A DNA stretch of 64,000 nucleotides from Azolla caroliniana (taxonomy: Eukaryota > Plantae > Polypodiophyta), in assembly GCA_043228905.1 (NCBI GenBank), contig JBHGNT010000004.1:6076001-6140000 (forward strand), written 5' to 3'. This document shows, piece after piece, positions 1 through 15,154 of this stretch (position 1 is its first letter; each line of letters opens with the position of its first letter). Below the pieces are notes generated by a model that did no database searches, was not told the origin of the DNA, and saw only the letters and a program-made list of their open reading frames with translations. Both the position numbers and the translations under genes were made by a program.

Positions 1-3000
1 ATAAAAGGGGTCGCGTCGGACCCAAGTTTACGGAATCCGGCTAGCATAGGGCACCGGTTCACCGACATAACGCTACGGGAGCTCAAAGTAGGTGGGGGTG
101 GCTTTCTACTGTCGGCGGAGGAGGACAGGTTTCGGAGAATGCTCGGAAGGCATGGGAAAGCCTTCGCATTCTCGCTAGAGGAGATCGGGTGCGTAGACCC
201 AATAGTTGTGGAACCGATGGTGATCTTCACGGTACCGCATGTGCCCTGAAATCTCAAACCGATTTCAGTACCCAGAGCTCACATCCCGAAGCTGATGGAG
301 CTGTTGAAACAGAAGGCCAAGATGGGCATCCTCGAACCGTCGAGTGCCCCATACTCGAATCGGTGGTTTACCGTGCCAAAGAAGAACGGCACGTTACGTT
401 TTAGTCAAGACCTGCAACCGGTCAACAAGGTGACCATTCGGAACGCAGGAATCAGACCGACCATAGACGAGTTCGCGGAGGCCTTCGCTGGAAGGTCGAT
501 TTACTCTGTCGGTGATCTATACTCGGGGTACGATCAGTTCCAACTAGCCGTGGAGAGCAGAGACATTACGACGACGCGGACTCCTCTCGGCCTAGTGCAG
601 ATGTGTACCCTACCACAAGGAGGGACGAACTCGGTGGCTCACATGGTGAACGCGATGAACAAAGTGCTCAGGGATTGCATCCCGGACATCAACATGCCGT
701 TCTTAGATGACATCTCGATCAAGGGATGCCCGGTGGAGGAAAAGGACGAGACAATCGGACCAGACGGATGTCGGAAGTTCGTGGCGGCTCACATCGATGA
801 CTGCGAGAAGGTGTTGCAGAGACTAGAAGGCGCGAGGCTCACCTTCTCCAGGGAAAAATTGGCCTTCGGGAAATCAGAGATCATGGTCGTCGGGCACCTA
901 TGCAGACCATACGGTCGAAAACCATCTCCGGCCAAGGTGGAAGCCATCTCCGCGATGAAGCATGACTGCAATTCGGTTACGGAGGTTCGGAGATTCTTGG
1001 GAGCATGCGCGTTCTACCATATTTGGATTCCACATTACGCCCACGTCGCGGAGCCGCTGTATGGGTTGTTGAAGAAAGGGCGTAAATTTGAGTGGGGAGA
1101 CGAGCATATGGAGTCAGCCCGAAAGATAAAGGAAGCACTTGCCACGACACCGGCGCTCCGAAAGGCTGTCTACGGCAAAGACACTTCGATTTACGTAACC
1201 GTAGACATGAGTCCGACCGGGATCGAATGGGTGATCAACCAAGAGGATGACACTGGCATGAGGTTCCCCATCCGGTTCGGCGCGAAGGTCCTCAGTGAAC
1301 GACAGCGAGGATACGCCCAGGTTAAACGCGAACTCTAGGGTATCATTTCGGCGGTGAAGGCCGATAAAGACTACCTGATCAGGACAGAGGTAATAATCGA
1401 GACGGACTGCCTACCAATTCTCGGCATGGTTTCCGGATGCGCGACGCCGGACCTGGCAATGCTCAGGTGGATAGCGTACATCAAGTCCCTGAATCTGGAG
1501 ATACGACACATTTCCGGAAAAGACAATGCCATGGTCGACATGCTCTCAAGGGCGAGGTTTGAAAACGAGGACGGCATGGTTTCGGAGGACGAGGAAGTCA
1601 GCGTAGATTTCTTCGAGGCGGCATACGTGACAACCAGAAAGGGGAGCACACCGGCGCTTAACGAATTTGACGAGAACAAGTATGACGGGGAGTGCCTCCA
1701 GATCGGCGGGCTCTTGAAAACAATGACACCGGACGCGGCGTGGACAAAGGAAGAGACCAACCGGATCCGGAAGAAAGCGTACCGGTTCTTCCTTCGGGAC
1801 AGGTACATATGGAAGCACCCGAAGAAGAGAAACGGCGTTCCACTTCGAGTAGTGGCAAAGAAAGAAGAACAGGAGGAACTACTGGCGGCATTTCACGAGA
1901 GTCCCTAGGCTGGGCACCGCGGAACGTGGGCCACGTTCGAGAAGGTGAAGGAGAAGTACTTGTGGTCGGGGCTGTACCAGGACGTGCATCGGTTCGTAAT
2001 GACTGGCGAAAGCTGTCAGATGCACTCCGTAGTCTGACATCGGGACGAGCTACACCCGACTTACCCACCTGCGGTCCATTTCAAGTGGATGGTGGACTTG
2101 ATGACGATGCCGATGGGAGTAGGACAGATGCGGTACCTGGTGATTGCGCGAGAAGACTTAACGAACCAGGTGGAAGGTCGTGCACTGCATAACAAGACAA
2201 CCGTGGTGGTATGCCGGTTCCTGATCGAAGAGGTAGTGTGTCAATACGGGTGCGTGGGGAGGATCATGGCGGACCAGGGAGAGTTGGATGCACGGGAAGC
2301 TGAGGAGTCGTTCGACCGGCTAGGGGTCAAACTCTCCCTCACTATGGCGTACAATCCGGAGGCGAATGGGAAGGTAGAACGTGGACACGGGCCGATCGTA
2401 AAGGTGTTGGTGTGTGCATGCGGAGGGCAAGTCGGGAGTTGGCCACGGCTCCTTCCTTACGCACTATGGGCGGACCGAACTACGCACAGTTCGGTGACAG
2501 GGTTCATGCCGGTAGAGCTGATGTACGGACAGAAGTCGATCATGTCGATGGAACGGACGGTTCCTTCATGGGCGGCGGTAGATTGGAAGGATGAGATGAG
2601 CCGAGAGGAATTGCTGGCGGCACGGATTCGGCAACTCGAGCGGAGGCCGGAGGACGTGAAACGGGCGAAGGAAAAGCTGCGGGCGGCAAGGGAGCGGAAC
2701 AAGACCCGGTTCGACCGGACGCACCAGTTGCGACCAAAGAAGATTGAGGAAGGCGATTGGGTCCTAGTGTATGACAGTAGCCTCAACAACCAGCACAGGG
2801 CAACGCGAAAGTTTGCAAGGAGGTGGTTCGGGCCTTATGTGGTGACAGGCGCCAACGACAACGGGACCTACCATCTTGCGGAGATCGACGGTACGAGGAT
2901 GGCAATACTGGTAGCAAGGAAGAGGGTCAAAGAGTTTAAGAAACGACACGAGTGCGAGCCGGATCTGGAAAGCTTGGACGGCGACGAAGGGCGGACCGAG

Positions 3001-3030
3001 GCGGATGACGAACCGGAAGACGAGGAGTAA
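1..3030 (+). pseudogene. Gypsy pol polyprotein (RT, RNase H, integrase with GPY/F motif, no chromodomain) broken by in-frame stops
   Basis: RT motifs DLYSGYDQ, LPQGGTNS, FLDD; RNase H-like YAQVKREL...IETDC; integrase NGKVERGH and WFGPY. ORFs 295-1338, 1354-1908 and 2089-3030 share one frame, with stops near 247, 1336, 1906 and 2036. Confidence 0.92.
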
Positions 3031-3089
3031 CGCATGGACCGGTTTTCTCCAGCAAAAGCCCAATTTTGGCGTATACCGGTGGGGGCGGA

Positions 3090-3775
3090 TGTCGTGAAGA
3101 AAACCGTCCCTAGGCGGAAACCGAGTTTAGCATGTGTAAACCGGCCCTTACACGCGAGCACACTTTTCGTTGTATAGTAAGTAGGTAGGTACAAGTCGGC
3201 TGAGGTGAAATCCTAGGTAGCACGCATTCAATTGGAAGAGAATCGAATTGTGTCTCTGTCCGAAAGGACAGAGAATTAATATGATGTAACAGATGATAAT
3301 GGCCTCCCTCCTTGGGCTATAAAAGAGAGGGAGAGGAATGAAAAAGGTATCGCGCGTTAGAGAGGATGAAGTGTTGTCGGACCGGGACTGAGCCCTTCTC
3401 CTCTGCCACTCTCCATAGCCATTTTTGCGCAGGTTTTCGGGAGGCTGACTCTACTCCGTGGAACGCCCGTGTGCTTCCGGCAGAGTTTCCATCTCGCTCT
3501 TCTATGTGTGTGAGTGAACAAGCGTCGGTGTCCGCCTTGCCGGCCTGTTACTTGTAACTATCTTGATATATATATACATTTATATACATACGTGTTCATA
3601 TACTCGGACTTCTAGTCGTCTCGTTTTGCTGTGTTGTTGGACTGTGATTCCTGTGTGCTCCCGTGTCAGTGCGTGTGCAAGTGTGTCCGTTGCCTTTCCG
3701 TTCTCCCCCTTCTCAGCTATTTCTCGGTCCAAGGCCCCGATGGTCCCGCCTCGTTCTCCACGCACGCGTGTAACA
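3090..3775 (+). repeat. 3' LTR of the Gypsy element
   Basis: Starts TGTCG right after the PPT and ends GTAACA; TATA box CTATAAAAG near 3317. Confidence 0.8.
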
Positions 3776-3791
3776 ACGTGACATTGCTTTA

Positions 3792-5597
3792 ATGGGAGAA
3801 ATCGAACCTCACGAGGATCGAGCCATACAGAAGATAGGACGGAAGAAGCAAGCACAGAATGCTTCGCTCCTCATGGAACTACTAGATCTGAACATGGCCT
3901 TAGTCGAGGCATATCACAATCTACACCACACTACTCGGGCTGCCAAGGATATGGCCCGACATATCAAAACGGTGCATCAACAAGCCAAACGGGCTACCGA
4001 GCTATGGCAAGCCACCGAGGAGAAACTAGCAACATTCAAGCAGCAACATCCAGAACAGCCGCCCTTAATCCTCCCTACGCCGAGTGACGCTGTCTCACTA
4101 GCCACTCTTCCGAACCTGAGCCTGAGTGTTGCAGGTACCGAAGCACACAAAGACGACACCGCTCACTCTAGGGTAGCCACGGTCGATGCCAGCACAATGA
4201 CGGACTCGGTACAGACAAGCGAACCATCGTCACGGGCAGATATCAGCCTGCACCTCCAAACCAGCCACGCCTCCACGCAAACGCCACCAGTCATCATGGA
4301 ACGATCTACACAAACAGACAGGGAACCCCCTCCCCAAATCCAGCAAGCGACAACCCATACCGGACCTCCCCTTCGGGACTACCAAAAGGAGCTTAAGGCC
4401 CAGATCGCCCTGGTCGAGTTGGTAGAACAGAACCACCACAACATCCTTGGCCAGCTACGGGAACAAGCCGCGAGCTGCTAAGCTGACCTCAAGCAACTGC
4501 TTGCTGAAAGGTCAGCCGCACTTGAAGAACGAGAAAGAGAGGTGATGACCCTTCAGGTCTCTATCACTGAGGCCAAAGAATGTTTCATCAAAGAAGCAGA
4601 GTGGAATAGCCAACGAGAACAAGAGCTCTTCGCAGACAACCAGGAATTACGACGTCATCAAGGGGCCTTACAAGACATGGCCAATGAACATATGCAGAAG
4701 TGGAGGATCTCGGAAGAGCAAAGGGCAAAACTTTCCGATGCGTATCACCAGTTGCAAATCGAGCACGTCGCCGCCAGAGAACAACATCGGGACGCTTGGC
4801 GACAGGACATGGACGAAATTGTAGCTCAACTCACCACACGTTATGAGCAGACAATCGCGCTCATCACTGAAAAAGCAAAAGATAATCAAGCTACTTTAGC
4901 ACTCCTCGTCCGCAAAAGCCAAGCAGAAGCCAAGGCCGCAAGGGAGGCAATGGAAGTTCACCACGCTAGCATCGGCATGGATGATACTAAAATCAAGATC
5001 CTAATCAACAAGTATCGCCAACAATTCACCACAAAGATCAAAGAAACACTTGACCATGTCTGGCAGGGGTGGTCAGCCCAAGCCGCGGACCTACACATAC
5101 TACGCGCGGATGCCGAGAACCGACGGAAGGAGGGCCGAGGGTTTTACAAGATGGATGACACCAGCATCCAGACCCTCCGTGAAGACTTAACTGAGGAATA
5201 TCATACCTTAGCAACATCCCACACCGCGGCCATCAAGCAACTTTTAGAGGAATTCAACGACGATCTAATGGTGTTTCGCTTAGAAGCCGAAGCTTACAAG
5301 GAGGAACGACTCGCGACCGGGATTAATAGAGCTCCCACAACCAACAAGCAAGGACCCGAGCCACCCACCACAACAGCTAGACCGGAGGAACCTGCCCCTA
5401 CAGACCTCCACATCCCACCCGAGCCACAGACTACAACAACGACCCCGCCTGAATCGGTCCCAACGGAGGAGGGCGCACACGACGACACAACCATCCCCGA
5501 CTCGGCAACAAAACCTCCATCACCAATCCCACCTTCCGAGCAGCCAGACCAACCCCACGCCCCCGAGGATATCCTCGGCATATTGGAAGAGGAATAA
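3792..5597 (+). pseudogene. Accessory coiled-coil protein of family X (~600 aa, one premature stop at 4479-4481, N-terminus cut by the Gypsy insertion)
   Basis: ORFs 3792-4481 and 4542-5597 are in the same frame; E/Q/A-rich heptad-like segments, Pro/Thr-rich tail, C-terminal EDILGILEEE. Confidence 0.75.
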
Positions 5598-5710
5598 AAC
5601 AAACCTATAAGCCCTCGTATAAACGAGCAATTTTTTGTAATTTGTTTTGTTTTTTCCAAATCCATGGGTACCCCTCTACATTGTGAACCTTGGGTCCGAC
5701 GGACAAAGTC

Positions 5711-5729
5711 CTGTCCCACGGGCATGCCA
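5711..5729 (-). promoter_or_regulatory. Primer-binding-site-like motif TGGCATGCCCGTGGGACAG (tRNA-Arg type)
   Basis: On the minus strand it follows the LTR end AACA after a 2-nt spacer (CC) and begins TGG. It resembles the Tat/Ogre-type Arg PBS as I recall it; identical in copy 2. Confidence 0.7.
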
Positions 5730-5731
5730 GG

Positions 5732-6222
5732 TGTTGTCAATAGGCCAGAAATATAAATATATTATGTAAACTCGCCATTAGGTAGAAGAGTAGGTGAGGA
5801 AATAGGTAAGACTAGAAATAGTCGTGTTTTAGCCCTCACAATCAGCCGATGGCTCGGCTCTGTCTAAAGGGGAAAACTATATAACCCGAGTTATGCATAC
5901 CTCAAGGGGGGATTATCTAGATCGTTCTTAGCGAGAGTAATATCACAGCAGCAAGTTCTGTACGAACTGTTTCCGACCGAGGCCGACTACTGTAATCACT
6001 GTGAGCTTCATCATTTAATATAAGTTTCGTTTTTATTCTTCTATCTGTGTATTCTCCCTGTACTCGTAAATCAAGCTACGTTATTGCCTAATGGGTTGTA
6101 GCTGGGTACGCTCCTCGTTCTCCTTTCTTCTCCCCGTGTAGAAGAGACTTCCCCGTAACACGATCCCTTGACCCCGATAGCCTGTGGGCTCATCGAAGGT
6201 GTTTTCCCAGAAACGGTTAACA
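5732..6222. repeat. LTR of family X copy 1 (491 bp)
   Basis: TGTT...AACA termini; CTATATAA near 5877 on +; right-end block CGATCCCTTGACCC...ATCGAAGGTGTT shared with 14560-15154. Confidence 0.8.
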
Positions 6223-9200
6223 CTTTGTTCTTGGATGGAACACTGGATTTTTTGCCAACTGAATGTTACTCATATTGTCACACCAAATTGTGACAGCACC
6301 ATCTATATACTCTCTCAAATCAGAAAGCAATCTTTTGATCCATACCTCTTCACAGGTAGCTATTGCAACTCCTCTATATTCAGCTTCAGTACTTGATAGT
6401 GCAAGAATAGCTTGTTTCTTGCTACTCCATGAAATAGTTGCACTTCCCAATGTAAAGATATATCCACTTGTGGATCTTTTGTCAGTTTGGCTTCCAGCCC
6501 AATCAACATCTGTATATCCTTCCAGCTTTATGTCCAAATCAGCCTTGTAAAATAATCCATAATTTTGAGTAGCTTTTACATACCTCAAAATTCTTCTTAT
6601 GTAGTCCAAATGTGGCTTTGTTGGTTGTTGCATAAACTGGCTGACTAATCCAACAACATAACTCAAATCAGGTCTTGTTATAGTCAAATATATGAGGCTA
6701 CCCACCATAGACCTATACATGTTTACATCTTCTATTTTGGCTCCCAAATCAACCATCAATTTGCAGTTCTTATCTACTAGTACACCAATAGGTTTGCATC
6801 CAAGCATACCATACTTCTTCAACATAGTTGTTGCATACTGTTTTTGCAACATATATATACCACTTTCAGATCTGATCATCCCAATACCGAGAAAGTATCT
6901 CAGCTCTCCCAAATCTTTCATATGAAATTGCATTTCCATATTTTTTTTTAACTTTCTTATTTCAGCCATGGAATTACCTCCAATGATTAAATCATCAACA
7001 TAAATTAGGATAACAACAATGCAATCATTTATCTTTTTTACATATAATGATGGATCAGCTTTTGACATTCTGAAGGCAGATTTTTTCAGAGATTCTGAAA
7101 GCCCCTTATGCCATGCTCTCGATGCCTATTTCAATCCATAGAGAGCCTTTTTCAGCCTACATACACATTCTGGATGCTTCTTATCTTCAAAACCTGGTGG
7201 TTGACACATGTATACTTCCTCTTCCAAGTTACCATGTAAAAAAACATTTTTTACATCTATATGGTGCAGAACCAATTTTTTGCCTGCACTCACAGCAAGT
7301 AGTGTTATCAATGTTGCCATCTTTGCAACCGGTGCAAATGTTTCATCATAATCAATTCCATGCATCTGGGCATATCCCTTTGCCACAAGTCTTGCTTTAT
7401 GTCTACTAACATTTCCATTGGAGTCATGCTTTGTCTTGTAGACCCATTTGCAACCTACAACATTTTTTCCTTTCGGTAACTTTACCAAATCCCGTGTTCT
7501 ATTTTCAGCCAATGCATCTATTTCTTCTTGCATTGCATTCACCCATTTCTTATCAGATTTTGCTTCATCAAAACTATTTGGATCAGGGATTTGTACCACT
7601 TTAGACATGTATGCATAATGCATAGCCATATATGTGTCATAACCAAATCTTTCCACGGTCTTTTTCTCTCTATCTGATCTTCTCAGTTTCTGATTTGCAT
7701 CCTTCATTGCCCTTTCCATACCAGGGATTTTCAGGGATCCTATACCAAGCTCATCATCCAATGATGTATCTGAATCTACATCTTCCATGTTTCTAGATCC
7801 ATCATCAAGCATTTCATATTCTGGCATTTTCTGTTTTCCCTTTTTATCATCATAATTTTTGTCTTGCACTTTTTCCACTCCATGCGTTAGATTCAGATTT
7901 ACTACCTGAGTTTCCAGATGGTCCAGTACATTCCATTGATGTTGAACTTTGTTGTCCAACATTGCTTCCATCTCTGTGCTTATCTCTTACATTTTCAAAT
8001 TTATCCTTGTCTTCATTTTCATTGTCTTCATTAATTTCTTCATTTTGTTTTGGGTTATACTAGCTACCCAACTCATCAAATATTACATCCCAACTTACCA
8101 CAATCTTTTTTGTCAAAGGGTTATAGCATCTATACCCTTTTTGCTCCTCTAAATATCCAACAAGAACACATTTTTCAGCTTTTGGATCAAACTTACTTCT
8201 TACTTCAGCAGGTACATGAACATAGGCAAGGCATCCAAACACTTTTAAGTGTTCTAAACTAGGCTTTCTACCATAGAAACATTCTTCAGGAGTTACTTCA
8301 TGCACTCCAGACGTTATACATCTATTTAGAATGTAGTTTGTTGTGTTTACAACTTTTGCCCAATAATAAAATGGCATATTTTTTTCAATCATCATGGCTC
8401 TTGCTATGTTCACCAGAGTTTTGTTTTTTCTCTTAGCAACTCCATTTTACTGTGGAGTATATCTACATGTAAACTGTCTCCTTATTCCTTGATTACATAG
8501 AAAATCAGAAAACTCATTTGAGAAGTATTCTCCTCCTCCATCAGATCTTAGGCATTTTATTCTAGTTCCAACCTGCTTTTCTACCATACATTTAAACTTA
8601 CGAAAGCAATCAAATACTTCACTTTTTTCTTTTATGAAGTAAACCCATGTTTTCCTTGAGCAATCATCATTTTGCTTTTTATAGCACTCAGCCTCTGTAT
8701 GGCCTAGTTTTCCACAATACCAACTACCATCATCATTCAAATAGGTTTGCTTACCTCTTCCTCGATTGCTCCCCCTGCCTCTGATGTTGTTTCATCCACT
8801 TACAGCCTATTGTCCTCTTCCTTGATAATTGTTGTTGGTTCTAACTGAACCAAATCTTCAATGGCCTCTTCCTCGGCCTCTTCCAGCACTATTGTAGACG
8901 GTTTGCCCCTCATCCTCTGAGTTTCCTTTGTTTACATCATCCATTTGATTTCTTTCTTCTACTACAAGCATTGAAACCAAATCTGGAAAACTTGGGATGC
9001 TATCCCTTGTGAGAATAGATGTTTCGAAGCTTTTATATTGAGCTCCTAAACCTCTTAAGCATATTTCCACCTTATCATCATCTTCTACCTTCACATTGAT
9101 AGAAGCAAGTGATTCACATATGCTCTTTATTTTTAGAGCATACTCATTCACTAACATCTTACCTTTTTCCAAGGTATTTAGCTCAGTCTTCAACTAAAGC

Positions 9201-9537
9201 TTTCTAGCCTTTGTGTTCATTGCAAACAGTTTTACCAAACTGTCCCAAGCTTCTTTTGGAAGCATAGCATCCTGTATGTGTCCAAGCATCGAATCTGAGA
9301 TGCTAAGTGGCAGCCAATGCAATACCTTTCTTGCCCCGTGATTCCATTCTTTAAATGCTTTAATCTATGCAATAGTTGCATTTTCTTCAGGGATCTCTGG
9401 AGCCTCTTCTAGGTCTCCTTCAATGTAATCCCAGTATCCTTTTCCCATCACGAAATTTGTCATTCTAAATTCCACGCCGGGAAATTGTTTTTATCTAATT
9501 TTTCTGTAACTATTTGGCTTGCATTTTCAGCAGCCAT
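6223..9537 (-). pseudogene. Copia gag-pol with stops, frameshifts and an internal deletion of the protease region
   Basis: ORFs 8858-9193, 8447-8740, 8060-8413, 7126-7971 and 6217-7068; start MAAENASQIVTEKLDK at 9537. Confidence 0.9.
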
Positions 9538-9651
9538 CTCTCTTTCAATTAGGGTTAACTTCATAGACAACTCTCTTTGATTCAGATTAGCAAACAGAGA
9601 AACAACCTTTCTCACATCTGTATACTGTTCTAATCTTCTTTACGAGCAACT

Positions 9652-9665
9652 CCACTCTGATACCA
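9652..9665 (-). promoter_or_regulatory. Copia PBS complementary to initiator tRNA-Met
   Basis: Minus strand reads TGGTATCAGAGTGG directly after the LTR end CGTAACA. Confidence 0.9.
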
Positions 9666-10039
9666 TGTTACGAAGGCGCTACGGCTCTTCTGTGTGCACA
9701 GCGGATCGTGATGTGCTGGATCATTCAGTGCTCAAGACAGAAAGGAAGGGGGAAAGAGACTTACCTCTACACAGTCCAAAAGCTTCTACTTCATTACACG
9801 CAAAGCTCAACTCGCTCTCGTTAGTTTTCTGTTTTTCTGTTCTTACAACTCTCTACACTACTCTCACTCTTCTTTTCTAATTAGCTGCCAGTAGCTAATT
9901 AGATGTTTGTAGCTAAATAGTTGTCAGTAGCTAAATAGTTGTTTCACCTTTATGTCCACTAGTAGCTAATTAGTTAATAACTACTATAGCTTATTTCTCA
10001 ATAAGCATCACATACGTTTGTTGAGCTTGCTTCTCAACA
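9666..10039 (-). repeat. Copia 5' LTR (~374 bp)
   Basis: Minus-strand TGTTGAG...GTAACA termini; adjacent PBS; internal short TAGCTAA repeats. Confidence 0.85.
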
Positions 10040-10103
10040 CTCCCGACCTAAGGATTTCTCAACGCTATGAGACCTACACGCTCGCCAACTACGCCACCAA
10101 CCC
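10040..10103 (-). pseudogene. tRNA-Met(CAU) pseudogene copy A, truncated at the T-arm by the Copia LTR
   Basis: Matches copy C from the 5' end up to the start of the B-box, then abuts the LTR. Confidence 0.8.
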
Positions 10104-10458
10104 ATTGACAAGTGTGATTTCATCTTACTTGACAGAAACTAATTGTATGATATAAGTGTTTCAACATAAACAAGAGTGAATCAAACTATTTTTGAGATTC
10201 AGAGCTTTACTATCCTATAAATGTTTTAATTTCTTCACCATGAAAAATTCAAAAGGAGTAATTTAAAAAAGAAGACGTAGTTTAATGGATTTGTTAAGTG
10301 GTATAGAACTGTATAATACTATTTTTCAAAAGAATTTCTACTATCATGTGAATGTTTTGCATTGTTCATCACAGAAATTCTAAATGAGCCATCTCCCACA
10401 TAAGAGGTGGTTTAATGGGTTTATTATGAAAGGGAAGAGCGGGTTTAAAAGTATTTGT

Positions 10459-10502
10459 CGAAGCTATGAGACCTACACGCTAACATAAAGTACCACCACC
10501 CC
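10459..10502 (-). pseudogene. tRNA-Met pseudogene copy B (degenerate 5' half only)
   Basis: AAGCTATGAGACCTACACGC...CCACCACCCC on + matches the 5' half and intron start of the other copies. Confidence 0.65.
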
Positions 10503-10611
10503 ATTCATGAGTGTCATTTGTAGTATCATGTAAATGTTAAGAATAGGATTGGTCAATATGGTCAACCGACTTCTCCCAATAGGAAGGTAAAATACCTAAC
10601 CTTATTAAGAA

Positions 10612-10695
10612 TGGGGTGAGAGAGGCTCGAACTCTCGACCTCAGGATATCTCGGAGCTATGAGACCTACGTGCTAGCCAACTACGCCACCACCCC
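10612..10695 (-). tRNA. Elongator tRNA-Met(CAU) with 10-nt intron, copy C (best preserved; one D-stem mismatch, may be non-functional)
   Basis: GGGGTGGTGGCGTAGTTGGCTAGCACGTAGGTCTCATA-gctccgagat-ATCCTGAGGTCGAGAGTTCGAGCCTCTCTCACCCCA, matching the plant tRNA-eMet type; TATA-like element upstream. Confidence 0.85.
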
Positions 10696-11033
10696 AGTGA
10701 TGAGTGCACTTTCTATAAACGTGTTCATTTATTCATCACACTAATTCGAAATGACTGATCTAAAAAAGAGGACATAATTTAATGAGTTTTGTTAAGTAGG
10801 ATTAAAGCGTATGAAACTTTTTCAAAACAACTTCTACTACCATGAGAATGTTTTGATTTGTACATCACAAATATACTAAATGAGTCGTCGTTTCAATAGG
10901 ATTGAAGTGTATGAAACTATTTTCGAAATAATTTGTACTACCATGTGAAGGTTTTAATTTGTTCATCACAAAAATTCTAAACGAGTCATCTTTACATAGA
11001 GAAGACGTAGTTTAATAATGGGTTTCTTAAGAG

Positions 11034-11117
11034 TGGGGTGAGAGAGTCTCGAACTCTTGACCTTAGGATTTCTGGAAGCTATGAGTCCTACACGCCAACC
11101 AATTGCGCCACCACCCC
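11034..11117 (-). tRNA. tRNA-Met(CAU) copy D, intron-containing, several substitutions (likely pseudogene)
   Basis: Full length with CAT anticodon and GTTCGAG B-box; D-arm and T-stem changes. Confidence 0.7.
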
Positions 11118-11190
11118 AATGATGATTACACTTTCTATATAATGTAAACGTGTTGATTTATTCATCACACAAATTCAGAATGACTAATCC

Positions 11191-13408
11191 TGCGAGGGTA
11201 GCTACCCGGAAAGCTACCAAGGACACCCAAGCGGAGAACGGTCTGCCGAGCCGGAAAGGCCACACCCAAAGGCAAATCGGAGGGCGTGAGTGTGGCCATC
11301 GAGGGCCAAAGTAAAGCATGGGTACGGGATGGTGTTCGGCACAGACAATGCCGAACAAGGAAGGTGGAAGGCGGCACACGGTTGTGCCGGGCCGGAAACT
11401 AGGCACGAAGATGGATTGCACGGTTTGGTGGTCTCACGAAGAACGTCGGAGAGGGATTCCCACACCGGTTCCGAAGACTTCGGCAGTTCGACCGCCAAGG
11501 CAACGTAAGACCGAGGAGAAGGAAGGTGGCTGCGAGGGGACGAAAGCGATGAACAACGACACTGAATGGGCAATCAGGACGACGGGAAGATCGACGAAGG
11601 CTGAGCTGGCCACTACGGGTGTCCCGCGGATGGAGGACACCGAGCATACGGGGGGACGCGGAGCGTGCATACGGTCGAACAAAGGGCCAACAGAGAAGCA
11701 CGCGCGAGAGAGGAGATCGTAGCGAACGATCTATCGACAGGTTGAATGAGCCTACGAAGAGGCAAGTGCGTAGACAGAACCGGAGCAGACAGTTCAAGAC
11801 CGGTAGAGGCCAACACGGCAGCCGGAATGAGGATTACGAAAGACCGGTTACTCACTACAGCCGGAATCTCTCACACTTCTTCAGATTTGGCACGTACCGG
11901 TGGACGTGCGGTTTGGTGGGGGCGGATGTCATGGAGATTCACGACCATAGTGAGAAAACCGGAGAAGTTAGTGGCATCGACGAAGTGCATCATGTGCACT
12001 TACCCTTGTATAAAACGTGTGAATAATAGGGGTGCCTTTATGGCGGCAAATAGGAGTTAAGTAGGGGATCCCACGTAATAAGGGATATATTATCCCACAT
12101 TGTTATGCCACTCCCGCCTTGTGCTATAAAAGGAAGGGAGGGTCTCTTGTGAAGGGGTTGCCCATTTTTGAGTTAGGAGGGTATACCATTAGGTCCAAGG
12201 TATGATAATCTTTCTTCTTCTTACTTTCTTGTTTCTATTTGGGTTTTTTTTGAGGTCTTCTTCTTCTTCGTCATCGTGTAGGTTGAGAGTTCGTGTCTGT
12301 TTAGGATTTAGTTCGGTTAGGAGCTTGTATGTCCTAAGGGGTTTCACTTCTGCTCTGTCTCTTGTGCAAGACCCCGCTCGGCGCGACGAGCCCGAGTGTT
12401 ACGGGCATGACCATATAATATCCTGTGGTGAGAATTTACCGTAGTATTCTATACACGTGGATAAGTGTGAGGGTTAAACGAGAGTGTAAAGAAGGGGAGG
12501 ATTACTTTTAATCCTCAGGATTGAGACAACCCATTAGGCCAAGTGTGAACAACTATTAGAGATATGTACTAATGTAAGCAAAGGATAAGGATAAACGATA
12601 GATCTAGATAGAGAGGAAAGAGAGGAAAGAGAGAAAGAAGGGTGTCGATCCACCCGACCACCCCCGAGCGAAGGGATCGAGACAGACTCGAGCCTCGATC
12701 GGCATCCCATACCACCGTCGTGGCGTTGAGTCGTACCTAGTGTTGGCACGCTCGCTACAAGAGTTGACTCACCACAAGAACAAAGTCTCGACGTAGTCAA
12801 AAGATGATGAAATGAGGGTAGCTAGGCCTCTTATTTATAGTGATACCCAAGGCCCCCAGACAAGTTCACACTTGGCCTAATGGGTTGTCTCAATCCCGAG
12901 GATTAAAAGTAATCATCCCCTTCTTTACACTCTCGTTTAACCCTCACACTTATCCACGTGTATAGAATACTACGGTAAATTCTCACAACGGGATATTATA
13001 TGGTCATGTCCGTAACACCGAGAGCTCCCCGATCGGCGGCTTGGCAGCAGATTATTGTTTTAACCTAACCTACCTTAGTCCGGCTCGAAGCCAGAGTTGT
13101 ATTTTGCTCTTGTAATTATATATATATATAAGGTTGTGCATATCTATGTCTTTGTTGGTGTTGGGTATGTTTTCGTCTTTCCGTTTCTGTACATAAGTGG
13201 TGTGTGTTGAGTCGGTGTTGCGTGTACGCTCTCTCTCTCCCTCTCTCCTGTTCGGTAGCCTCCGATACGTGTTTGGAATCACTCGGTTTGTGTGATAGCC
13301 GGTGCAGACGGTTCCAGTGAGAGTCGATCTCCCAGCATCCATCTATTCTTGGTCCGTGACCCCGGTGGTCCTGCCCGATCCGACACGTGCACGCGGAATA
13401 CTGCGACA
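11191..13408 (+). mobile_element. Gypsy-type LTR remnant (solo or truncated LTR) inserted in the tRNA array
   Basis: GC-rich block interrupting the AT-rich array; TATA GCTATAAAAGG near 12123; ends GCGACA; 3' end resembles LTR 3090-3775 (CCCCGnTGGTCC...CACGCG). No TSD found and the left boundary is approximate. Confidence 0.65.
12397..13017 (-). mobile_element. 621-bp non-autonomous element with 154-bp terminal inverted repeats, TGTTACGG...CCGTAACA ends and 5-bp TSD CCGAG
   Basis: 12397-12550 is the reverse complement of 12864-13017 (5 mismatches by eye); CCGAG at 12392-12396 and 13018-13022; internal minus-strand CTATAAATAAGAGG. Confidence 0.9.
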
Positions 13409-13493
13409 ACGTAAATGTTAAGAATAGGGTTGGTCGATCCGGTCGACGAACTTTTCCTAATAAGAAGGGAAAAACACCTAACATTCTTGAGGA

Positions 13494-13575
13494 TGGGGTG
13501 AGAGGCTCGAACTCTCGACCTCAGAATATCTCGAAGCTATGAGACCTACACGATAGCCAACTGCGCCGCCACCCC
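13494..13575 (-). pseudogene. tRNA-Met(CAU) copy E, intron-containing, 2-nt deletion near the 3' end
   Basis: GGGGTGGCGGCGCAGTTGGCTATCGTGTAGGTCTCATA-gcttcgagat-ATTCTGAGGTCGAGAGTTCGAGCCTCTCACCCCA; flanks match copy C. Confidence 0.8.
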
Positions 13576-13711
13576 ATTGATGAGAATAATTTCTACTATA
13601 ATTAAATGTTTTGATTTATTCCTGGTTTTGTTAAGTAGGATAGAAGTGTATGAAACTATTTTCAAAAGAAATTCTACTACCATGTGAATGGTTTGATTTG
13701 TTCATCACAAC

Positions 13712-15154
13712 AATGCAACAAGACCTACGTGCAATATAAGCAAGACACAAAGTTGTTTCAGAAGAAGGTCGAAGGAATAAGCATCTCTTTCCAAGTCGCG
13801 AAAGCCAAGCTCGAACTCGACACCGCCACTGCCAAAATGAAATGGACACACTCTATGTCAAATACCACATGGGTGACTAACGAGTCAAGGTCTTAATTGC
13901 CAAACACCGTAAGCGGTTGAACCAGAAGGTCGAAGAGGCATTGGCTCGGGGATGGAACGAATGGTTGGCACAAGCGATCGAATTACAAATATTCCGAGCA
14001 GATGCCAAGAATCGAAAAAAGGAGGGCCGCGACTTCTTCAAGATGTATGAGAATGGCATTCAAGTGCTTTGAGAGGACCTCACCGAAGAGTTCCAAGCCC
14101 TTGCACAGACACACACCATGGTGATTAGGAACCTCCTTGAGGAATTCACCGACGATCAAGTCCTCCTCGCCATTGAAATGGACGACTTCGAGCGAAAGCG
14201 CCTCCAAGAGGAAGAGCAAGAGAAAGAACTAGAACAAGCGCAGGGAAGAGAGACGAAGCAAGAGCAGGAGAAAGAGCCGGAAAAAGAGAAGGAACCCAAG
14301 GAGGAGGATATTCGGCAAACAAAGGAGGCACCATAAAAGGAAGAGCAAGTCGTGCCTCCAGAACCAAATCACAGGGCCGATCTCTCGAGCGAAGTCATCG
14401 GCAAACCGGATGATTTGGTGCATGCGGAAGACATTTTGCCGATTTTTGGAGGAAGACTAGTGTATACTATAAATGTTTTTCGATATTTTCGATATTTTTT
14501 CGGACTTTCGATTTTTGCCAATTTTCAGGGTTTGACGTCTGTCCCACGGGCATGCCAGGTGTTACTCGGTGGGACAGAGGGGACCAATGTGAAAGGATCG
14601 CATATGACAAGTATGAAAAGGATGTGGGGACGAATGTGAAAGGACCAAAAGAAGCCGAATACAAACAGTTGAAGACAAAAGCCGAATATCAAGGAGGGAG
14701 CAATTGGAAAAGCATTGAGTCAAGGGAAGGCTATATAAACAAGGAAGTGGCAAACACAAAAGGGATTAGAATCATAGGAGAGACCAGAGAGATCATAGAC
14801 TAGAGGAGAGATTAGAACTCCAAGAGCACTAAGCTTAGACTAGAAAACGGGTGAGTGAGGGTTGTACCGATTCTTTTGAGTATTTGTATCGATATTGTAT
14901 CGCATTCTATTATAATCGAATATCTATATATTTGTGGGCAAGCATTGTTATGTCTCCATTGATCTATTTTATCTAATTATGTTCGGTCTGTGTAATTCAT
15001 ATTGTGAATTAGTGATAGCCGATCCTGTAGAGTGTAATTCCTCTTATTGGGAATGATCTGATTTGTCCCGGGGCACAAGTCTCTATGCACCACGATTCCT
15101 TGACCCGGTTACTCTAGAGGAGTAATCGAAGGTGTTCTCCAGGACAGAGTAACA
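13712..15154. mobile_element. LTR element family X copy 2: decayed 3' part of the accessory ORF (to 14460), PBS-like motif (14539-14557) and LTR 14560-15154
   Basis: Translation FRADAKNRKKEGRDFFKM...LLEEFTDD aligns with LRADAENRRKEGRGFYKM...LLEEFNDD of copy 1; LTR termini TGTTACTC...GAGTAACA. Confidence 0.82.

Follow-up and report, generated by a model that had tools for sequence, protein, structure and literature searches.

Host arginine tRNA as the probable plus-strand primer of Ty3/gypsy retrotransposons that lack a polypurine tract in Azolla caroliniana

The element and its tRNA-like site

Two copies of a long terminal repeat (LTR) retrotransposon family were analysed in a stretch of 64,000 nucleotides from Azolla caroliniana (GCA_043228905.1, contig JBHGNT010000004.1, positions 6,076,001 to 6,140,000 of the forward strand), referred to here as the window. 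Copy 1 belongs to a complete Ty3/gypsy element on the plus strand, of which the window contains the 3' end and the remainder lies upstream, and copy 2 is a 5'-truncated member of a different subfamily. In both, the position before the 3' LTR normally held by a polypurine tract (PPT) is occupied by a sequence resembling the 3' end of a tRNA. The features of the two copies, including the extra open reading frame (ORF) and the target site duplication (TSD) of copy 1, are as follows.

3786..5597, +, 3' extra ORF of copy 1, C-terminal portion, with one in-frame stop at 4479-4481
5690..5698, +, match to the T-stem 5' strand and T-loop of tRNA-Arg(UCU) (about nt 49-57), by comparison with the host tRNA
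5699..5714, +, small inserted hairpin of ~6 bp with a bulged T and a 3-nt loop, marked by compensatory changes across subfamilies
5713..5729, +, sense copy of tRNA-Arg(UCU) nt 59-76 with CCA, minus one C, by match to the host tRNA; in the PPT position, and resembling a primer binding site (PBS) on the minus strand
5730..5731, +, 2-nt spacer between CCA and LTR
5732..6222, +, 3' LTR of copy 1, TG...CA, TATA box at 5877
6223..6227, +, right TSD of copy 1, 5 bp (CTTTG), with its twin left of the 5' LTR
13749..14204, +, decayed remnant of the extra ORF of copy 2
14539..14559, +, 3' tRNA-like site of copy 2, CCA-bearing core intact, upstream hairpin out of register
14560..15154, +, 3' LTR of copy 2, TATA box at 14731

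The 5' LTR of copy 1 was found at about window -11675..-11216 with 91.65% identity to the 3' LTR, and is followed by a PBS in forward orientation, complementary to tRNA-Arg over 13 nt. The upstream coding regions, comprising gag, the protease, reverse transcriptase, RNase H and integrase domains (PR-RT-RH-INT) and the first part of the extra ORF, are all on the plus strand. Within the window the long plus-strand ORF spans 3774-5597 with its one in-frame stop, and a nested gypsy element, whose end lies near window 3776, interrupts the extra ORF. The sequence CTATATAA is present on the plus strand at 5877 and 14731, while TATAAA occurs on the minus strand in neither LTR. The ORF is a sense 3' extra ORF and the TATA boxes point in the normal direction, and other copies with both LTRs and TSDs, including intact young copies, have the same plus orientation.

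The initial annotation had correctly placed the TATA boxes and the long ORF on the plus strand, and had offered two readings of the motif before the LTRs, to be separated by the strand of gag-pol and the flank of the other LTR. In the first, the element would run on the minus strand, its PBS followed by an antisense gene and its promoter directed outward. The PBS-like geometry of the motif on the minus strand agrees with this and nothing else does; with gag-pol of copy 1 on the plus strand, a forward PBS after its 5' LTR and a matching TSD, an arrangement repeated in the intact young copies, this reading is refuted. The second, a plus-strand element in which an inverted tRNA site replaces the PPT, is supported by the orientation and PBS of copy 1 and by the absence of a PPT.

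The same 21-mer was confirmed at window 5711-5731 and 14539-14559, with TGTT immediately after it in both cases, before two diverged LTRs that have one stretch of about 50 nt in common (78%). The 17-nt core of the 21-mer gave 2 window matches at up to 3 mismatches, compared to a shuffle mean of 0.09, and the exact 21-mer is present in 22 copies genome-wide, with 0 for a reversed-pattern control. This 21-mer is the tail end of a structured site of ~40 nt that begins near window 5690. Comparison with the tRNA 3' ends of the species, as the initial annotation had proposed, revealed that the site is a sense copy of host tRNA-Arg(UCU) nt 49-57 and 59-76 including the CCA, usually lacking one C and with the hairpin inserted between the two parts. 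The CCA is absent from the host tRNA-Arg(UCU) genes themselves. The spacer between CCA and LTR is 2 nt in subfamilies A, B and C and 4-5 nt in subfamily E, and no Rfam family was found over the site.

Conservation of the site and absence of a polypurine tract

A sample of 30 loci, one of them the window copy, was chosen by the extra ORF alone (the best 30 of 150 scored), and 26 of them had an identifiable LTR start. At every one of these 26 starts the longest purine run within 25 nt before the LTR was 3 nt. None had a PPT, in agreement with the statement of the initial annotation that the motif is not a polypurine tract. The full site was present at 25 of these starts and a deleted form at the other. 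At one variable position of the site G, the tRNA-matching base, was commoner than A across the 26 loci, and both window copies carry A. The same site was recognised by eye in B, C and E. When loci were instead ascertained by their LTRs, the site stood before 16 and the PBS after 14 of 30 subfamily B LTRs; in subfamily C the corresponding counts were 16 and 11, with neither at 3, and in subfamily E the site was present on 11 of 30 with a 5-nt spacer. Exact LTR starts numbered 197, 770 and 219 in three subfamilies. A metagenome scan returned 123 stretches, and the same architecture was seen by eye in 116 of 121 loci, the other 5 being chance-like; a scan of viral contigs with a sister-clade protein gave no match. 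The site is conserved across diverged subfamilies. Short or internally deleted derivatives that keep both the PBS and the mirror site were observed in the metagenome (L167, L214) and in the A. caroliniana genome (L024, L025, L030).

The PBS corresponds to tRNA-Arg(UCU) in A and B, where it is complementary to the site, and usually to tRNA-Arg(UCG) in C and E, in which the site remains Arg(UCU) despite the different PBS. The host tRNA-Arg(UCG) gene was located by a looser pattern, two stricter patterns having matched nothing. Read-through copies of the tRNA, of the full 18 nt and longer, are present at LTR right ends. One explanation of the site is that it pairs with the element's own 5' PBS, giving RNA circularisation or self-priming, or that it aids strand transfer, the plus strand being started by some other primer. 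The complementarity in A and B fits this, as does one integrated copy (L147) with its interior inverted between the PBS and the site. The explanation is nevertheless very unlikely, given that C and E have switched their PBS to Arg(UCG) and kept the Arg(UCU) site, that no PPT is present, and that the remnants at LTR left ends, described below, are tRNA. The L147 copy itself (G000:C3:8.087-8.095 Mb) has direct LTRs of 99.3% identity and a 5-bp TSD, its inverted interior being joined at the PBS and the 3' tRNA-like site, and its insertion point seems by eye to be a tRNA-Phe-like sequence, although ARAGORN detected no tRNA there. In subfamily A copies such as L037, a short palindrome right after the PBS is a candidate dimerisation signal.

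Covariation was counted in 148 in-register sites among 156 distinct sites, the 5 chance-like metagenome matches having been removed beforehand; the counts are descriptive and not probabilities, as the sequences are related and the 3' side is fixed by the search patterns in many of them. The two central hairpin pairs were Watson-Crick in 130 and 141 of the 148 sites (shuffle means 73 and 72; counts as high as 130 and 141 came up in 0 of 2000 shuffles) with 49 and 62 compensatory changes, and the outer two pairs gave 27 and 15. The five T-stem-like pairs showed 0 compensatory changes though their 5' side varies, as expected if those bases track a tRNA and not each other. In co-folding with RNA parameters the tRNA paired to either side of the hairpin, which looped out. 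Comparison of the strand on which the hairpin folds, over six pairs, gave 40 G-T-type against 31 A-C-type.

Retained tRNA at LTR left ends and the plus-strand primer

Undeleted 3' ends of tRNA-Arg(UCU) with CCA were searched across the genome, giving 27 exact and 77 relaxed matches in 72 distinct contexts. LTR right ends, where the minus-strand primer is expected, accounted for 29 contexts, an internal junction for 1 and LTR left ends for 6. These six independent left-end footprints consist of 18-57 nt of host tRNA-Arg(UCU) with CCA and differ from the element's own site: the C missing from the native site is present, there is no full hairpin, and the subfamily spacer follows (with a single difference in one case). 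The B footprints have 3 differences from the native site. The longest, at C2:12.0 Mb, is 57 nt and has been duplicated to three copies, of which one stands before a 5' LTR, PBS and gag. At C2:12.74 Mb 49 nt stand before an LTR with PBS, and at C20:0.88 Mb 18 nt stand before the 5' LTR of a gag-pol copy. The footprint at C16:17.53 Mb is an LTR-LTR junction, present as two tandem copies, that reads right end, PBS spacer, one base, 18 nt of tRNA, B spacer and LTR start; a search for short LTR-LTR junctions in B gave just these two copies of one event. The remaining two are at C3:8.09 Mb and C11:1.42 Mb, and these, like the C20:0.88 Mb footprint, were assigned mainly by eye. An LTR and then a PBS follow three of the six footprints, and two of these lead into gag (C2:12.0 Mb and C20:0.88 Mb). 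Four sets of DNA contigs from sequencing runs added no information about ends or strand.

Five of the six footprints lie in copies of C/E type, in which the PBS is usually that for Arg(UCG). There are 108 Arg(UCG) copies with CCA, of which 30 contexts were examined together with all genome-wide matches that have a 2-nt spacer and TGTT (2) or a non-A next base (2); none of these 34 contexts was a left end, 30 being right ends and 4 unmatched. The left-end tRNA is therefore unlikely to be the usual minus-strand primer folded back, and the same contrast indicates that pairing with the element's own PBS is not all that keeps the site.

From these genomic footprints we infer that the plus strand is likely to be tRNA-primed; probably a second host tRNA, annealed to the new minus-strand DNA at the mirror-image Arg(UCU) site, acts as the primer. 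In the proposed scheme tRNA-Arg(UCU) or tRNA-Arg(UCG), depending on the subfamily, would prime the minus strand at a PBS of 10-13 nt, and RNase H would then clear the RNA and expose the mirror site on the minus-strand DNA. Nucleotides 61-76 and 49-57 of tRNA-Arg(UCU) would pair with this DNA, the DNA hairpin looping out opposite nt 58-60, and reverse transcriptase (RT) would extend the CCA end across the 2-5-nt spacer into U3. Normally RNase H would remove the tRNA and integrase would trim the spacer. On failed removal the tRNA would be copied, usually for 18 nt and sometimes beyond, the stop being presumably the 1-methyladenosine at position 58 (m1A58). The family would then probably represent a whole clade of plant Ty3/gypsy elements without a PPT in which host tRNAs prime both DNA strands. 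Some subfamilies would use a different arginine tRNA for each strand, that of the plus strand being bound to minus-strand DNA in a three-way junction built by the conserved hairpin.

The footprints resemble the 2-LTR junctions of HIV-1, where failed primer removal leaves the minus-strand primer, a tRNA, on the right at U5 and the plus-strand primer on the left at U3; the left remnant is the PPT in HIV and host tRNA here (PMC5618025).

A competing explanation is that the plus-strand primer is a fragment of the element's own RNA, a mimic of a tRNA end cut after the CCA by RNase H and so a non-purine PPT, and that host tRNA reached the left ends only by template switching of RT onto a tRNA of the same sequence. 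The CCA that ends the site does lie at a constant distance from the LTR, and the plus-strand RNA of 3 of 4 folded sites can form a T-arm-like stem together with the covarying hairpin at about -11 to -14.5 kcal/mol. Joining of a tRNA end at a 2-nt match (L153) and chimeras of hairpin and tRNA 18-mer beside inverted LTR ends (L076, L077, L085) are also consistent with switching. Yet a switch at the first minus-strand crossing would leave the tRNA in front of the 3' LTR with loss of the interior, whereas three footprints precede an LTR and PBS and two of them continue into gag; template switching onto tRNA does not readily yield a tRNA before the 5' LTR of a complete copy. The T-stem-like pairs vary on the 5' side with 0 compensatory changes, and own-sequence left-end remnants were seen on no 5' LTR among the loci examined, a genome-wide search for them not having been made. 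Priming by an RNA mimic is accordingly considered unlikely.

Several observations weigh against priming of the plus strand by a host tRNA. The footprints are rare, six events from aberrant products, and those at C3:8.09 Mb and C11:1.42 Mb are in rearranged copies. Thirty-six of the 72 Arg(UCU) contexts match neither end library, and the right-end call was made by eye only. The search patterns that fix part of the site in many loci bias the absence of compensation in the T-stem-like pairs, the upstream tRNA-matching segment contributes only 0.4-4.9 kcal/mol in the co-folding, and the hairpin register is lost in window copy 2. The L153 junction joins a tRNA 18-mer to an internal gag-pol position with a 2-nt match only, which indicates that joining of a tRNA end by RT does not require the site. 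Two LTR right ends also carry Arg(UCU), one on an LTR that continues into a 5' leader of C type (L481) and one on an LTR of E type (L147), so this tRNA may be present as a spare minus-strand primer. RNA primers other than the PPT are suppressed on DNA by nucleocapsid and RNase H in HIV (PMC2665208).

Other tRNA-related junctions were observed in the same searches. In L076, L085, L482, L502, L509 and L513 the site hairpin is followed by an undeleted tRNA 18-mer and then by sequence like an inverted LTR right end, which suggests that transfer of plus strong-stop DNA is often to the 3' site rather than to the PBS. Many full 18-nt Arg(UCG) copies at right ends run into unrelated sequence (L382-L411), which suggests that second-strand transfer at the short PBS often goes wrong. 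Nearly whole mature tRNA-Arg sequences (70-76 nt with CCA) are reverse-copied beside LTR-like ends in L433, L449 and L461. Tandem clusters of tRNA-Arg(UCU)-like sequences with a common 3' tail, possibly satellites or similar to short interspersed elements (SINE-like), lie at G000:C11:0.69-0.70 Mb, C22:1.43-1.50 Mb and C4:19.5-19.7 Mb.

Priming of the plus strand from a PPT is regarded as a general rule among LTR retrotransposons and retroviruses (PMC5371799, PMC10886601). If the plus strand is tRNA-primed here, a successful and recently active lineage breaks the PPT rule, its RT would be able to start efficiently from a DNA-bound tRNA without RNase H destroying that tRNA, and the family would offer a natural system in which to study the properties that define a plus-strand primer. 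Annotation tools that score a PPT could miss or mis-orient such elements, and tRNA 3' fragments could act in silencing on both priming steps. No description of a tRNA-primed plus strand was found in the literature searched, a scope outside which subscription papers lie; the per-element table of PMC6317226 could hold relatives.

Relationship to known elements and neighbouring sequences

Assignment to Ty3/gypsy follows from the order gag-PR-RT-RH-INT between direct LTRs with a TSD (Pfam, intact copy L146; the protease match is weak, E 0.026) and from a PBS after the 5' LTR that matches host tRNA-Arg(UCU) or tRNA-Arg(UCG) genes. The intact young copy has a single gag-pol frame of 1852 aa, in which Pfam gave no second RNase H family at E 0.05. 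The extra ORF frames have 870-990 codons and no Pfam family, the Athila ORF-1 domain was absent from the three extra ORFs searched, and the Atlas matches of 0.75-0.79, below 0.8, serve as leads only. The RT-RH-INT region is mostly about 40-43% identical to its angiosperm matches, and the nearest named proteins are from liverworts (43-49%). In a quick IQ-TREE analysis of 62 rows (57 of 120 listed homologues and 5 own sequences, with no classified reference elements), A, B and C grouped together at 99 among liverwort and unnamed proteins, outside an angiosperm Athila-like clade supported at 100.

The tRNA-Arg likeness of the PBS noted in the initial annotation was upheld by the match to host tRNA-Arg genes; the suggested kinship with Tat/Ogre/Retand was not. 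Those elements share with the present family a tRNA-Arg PBS, an extra ORF and a 5-bp TSD (PMC6317226; PMC11963269), but here no extra RNase H was found, the extra ORF is 3' and in sense orientation, and there is no PPT. Membership is ruled out by the lack of the additional archaeal-type RNase H domain that defines the group (PMC6317226). Phygy and Selgy, described with a 4-bp TSD, a tRNA-Trp or tRNA-Ala PBS and no extra ORF (PMC6317226), are likewise ruled out by the 5-bp TSD, the Arg PBS and the extra ORF. A similar layout is that of Athila, a non-chromovirus OTA lineage (PMC6317226), which also has no extra RNase H, a 5-bp TSD, one gag-pol frame and an extra ORF; its PBS is complementary to tRNA-Asp, -Asn or -Ala in contrast to tRNA-Arg here, and in the present family the Athila ORF-1 domain was not found and the PPT is replaced. 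The family thus resembles the Athila type in layout and departs from it in the PBS, a comparison made by description and not by placement against classified references.

Compared with canonical LTR elements such as Ty3 (PMC5371799), the family retains tRNA priming of the minus strand at the PBS, the gag-PR-RT-RH-INT order, TG...CA LTRs and a TSD, and as in Ty1 and Ty3 the PBS stays short in most copies and is not restored to a full copy of the tRNA. The canonical plus-strand primer is an RNase H-resistant purine tract of the element's RNA, whereas here there is none and the left-end remnants are host tRNA; similarly, the second tRNA-pairing segment of Ty3 is complementary to the tRNA in the RNA, while in this family the RNA has tRNA sense (PMC5371799). 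The Helenus terminal-repeat retrotransposons in miniature (TRIMs) also contain tRNA-derived sequence, but it lies inside their LTRs, both PBS and PPT are kept, and the author finds no priming role for it (PMC10886601).

The nested gypsy element that interrupts the extra ORF of copy 1 occupies window 1-3784, with its other LTR at ~-3318..-2624 and 95% identity between the LTRs. It has an apparent 4-bp TSD of the NCGN type described for Phygy, and unlike copy 1 its 3' LTR is preceded by a purine-rich tract.

A decayed Ty1/copia element on the minus strand adjoins the TSD of copy 1 at about window 6228-10040, with a PBS near 9655-9666 that we take to be of the tRNA-Met type. Several dispersed tRNA-like copies with an anticodon read as CATA lie on the minus strand within a larger repeat at window 10040-11120 and 13482-13597. 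Between these, arms of 155 nt at window 12396-12550 and 12864-13018 are 97% complementary and consist of LTR-like sequence of another family in an inverted LTR arrangement.

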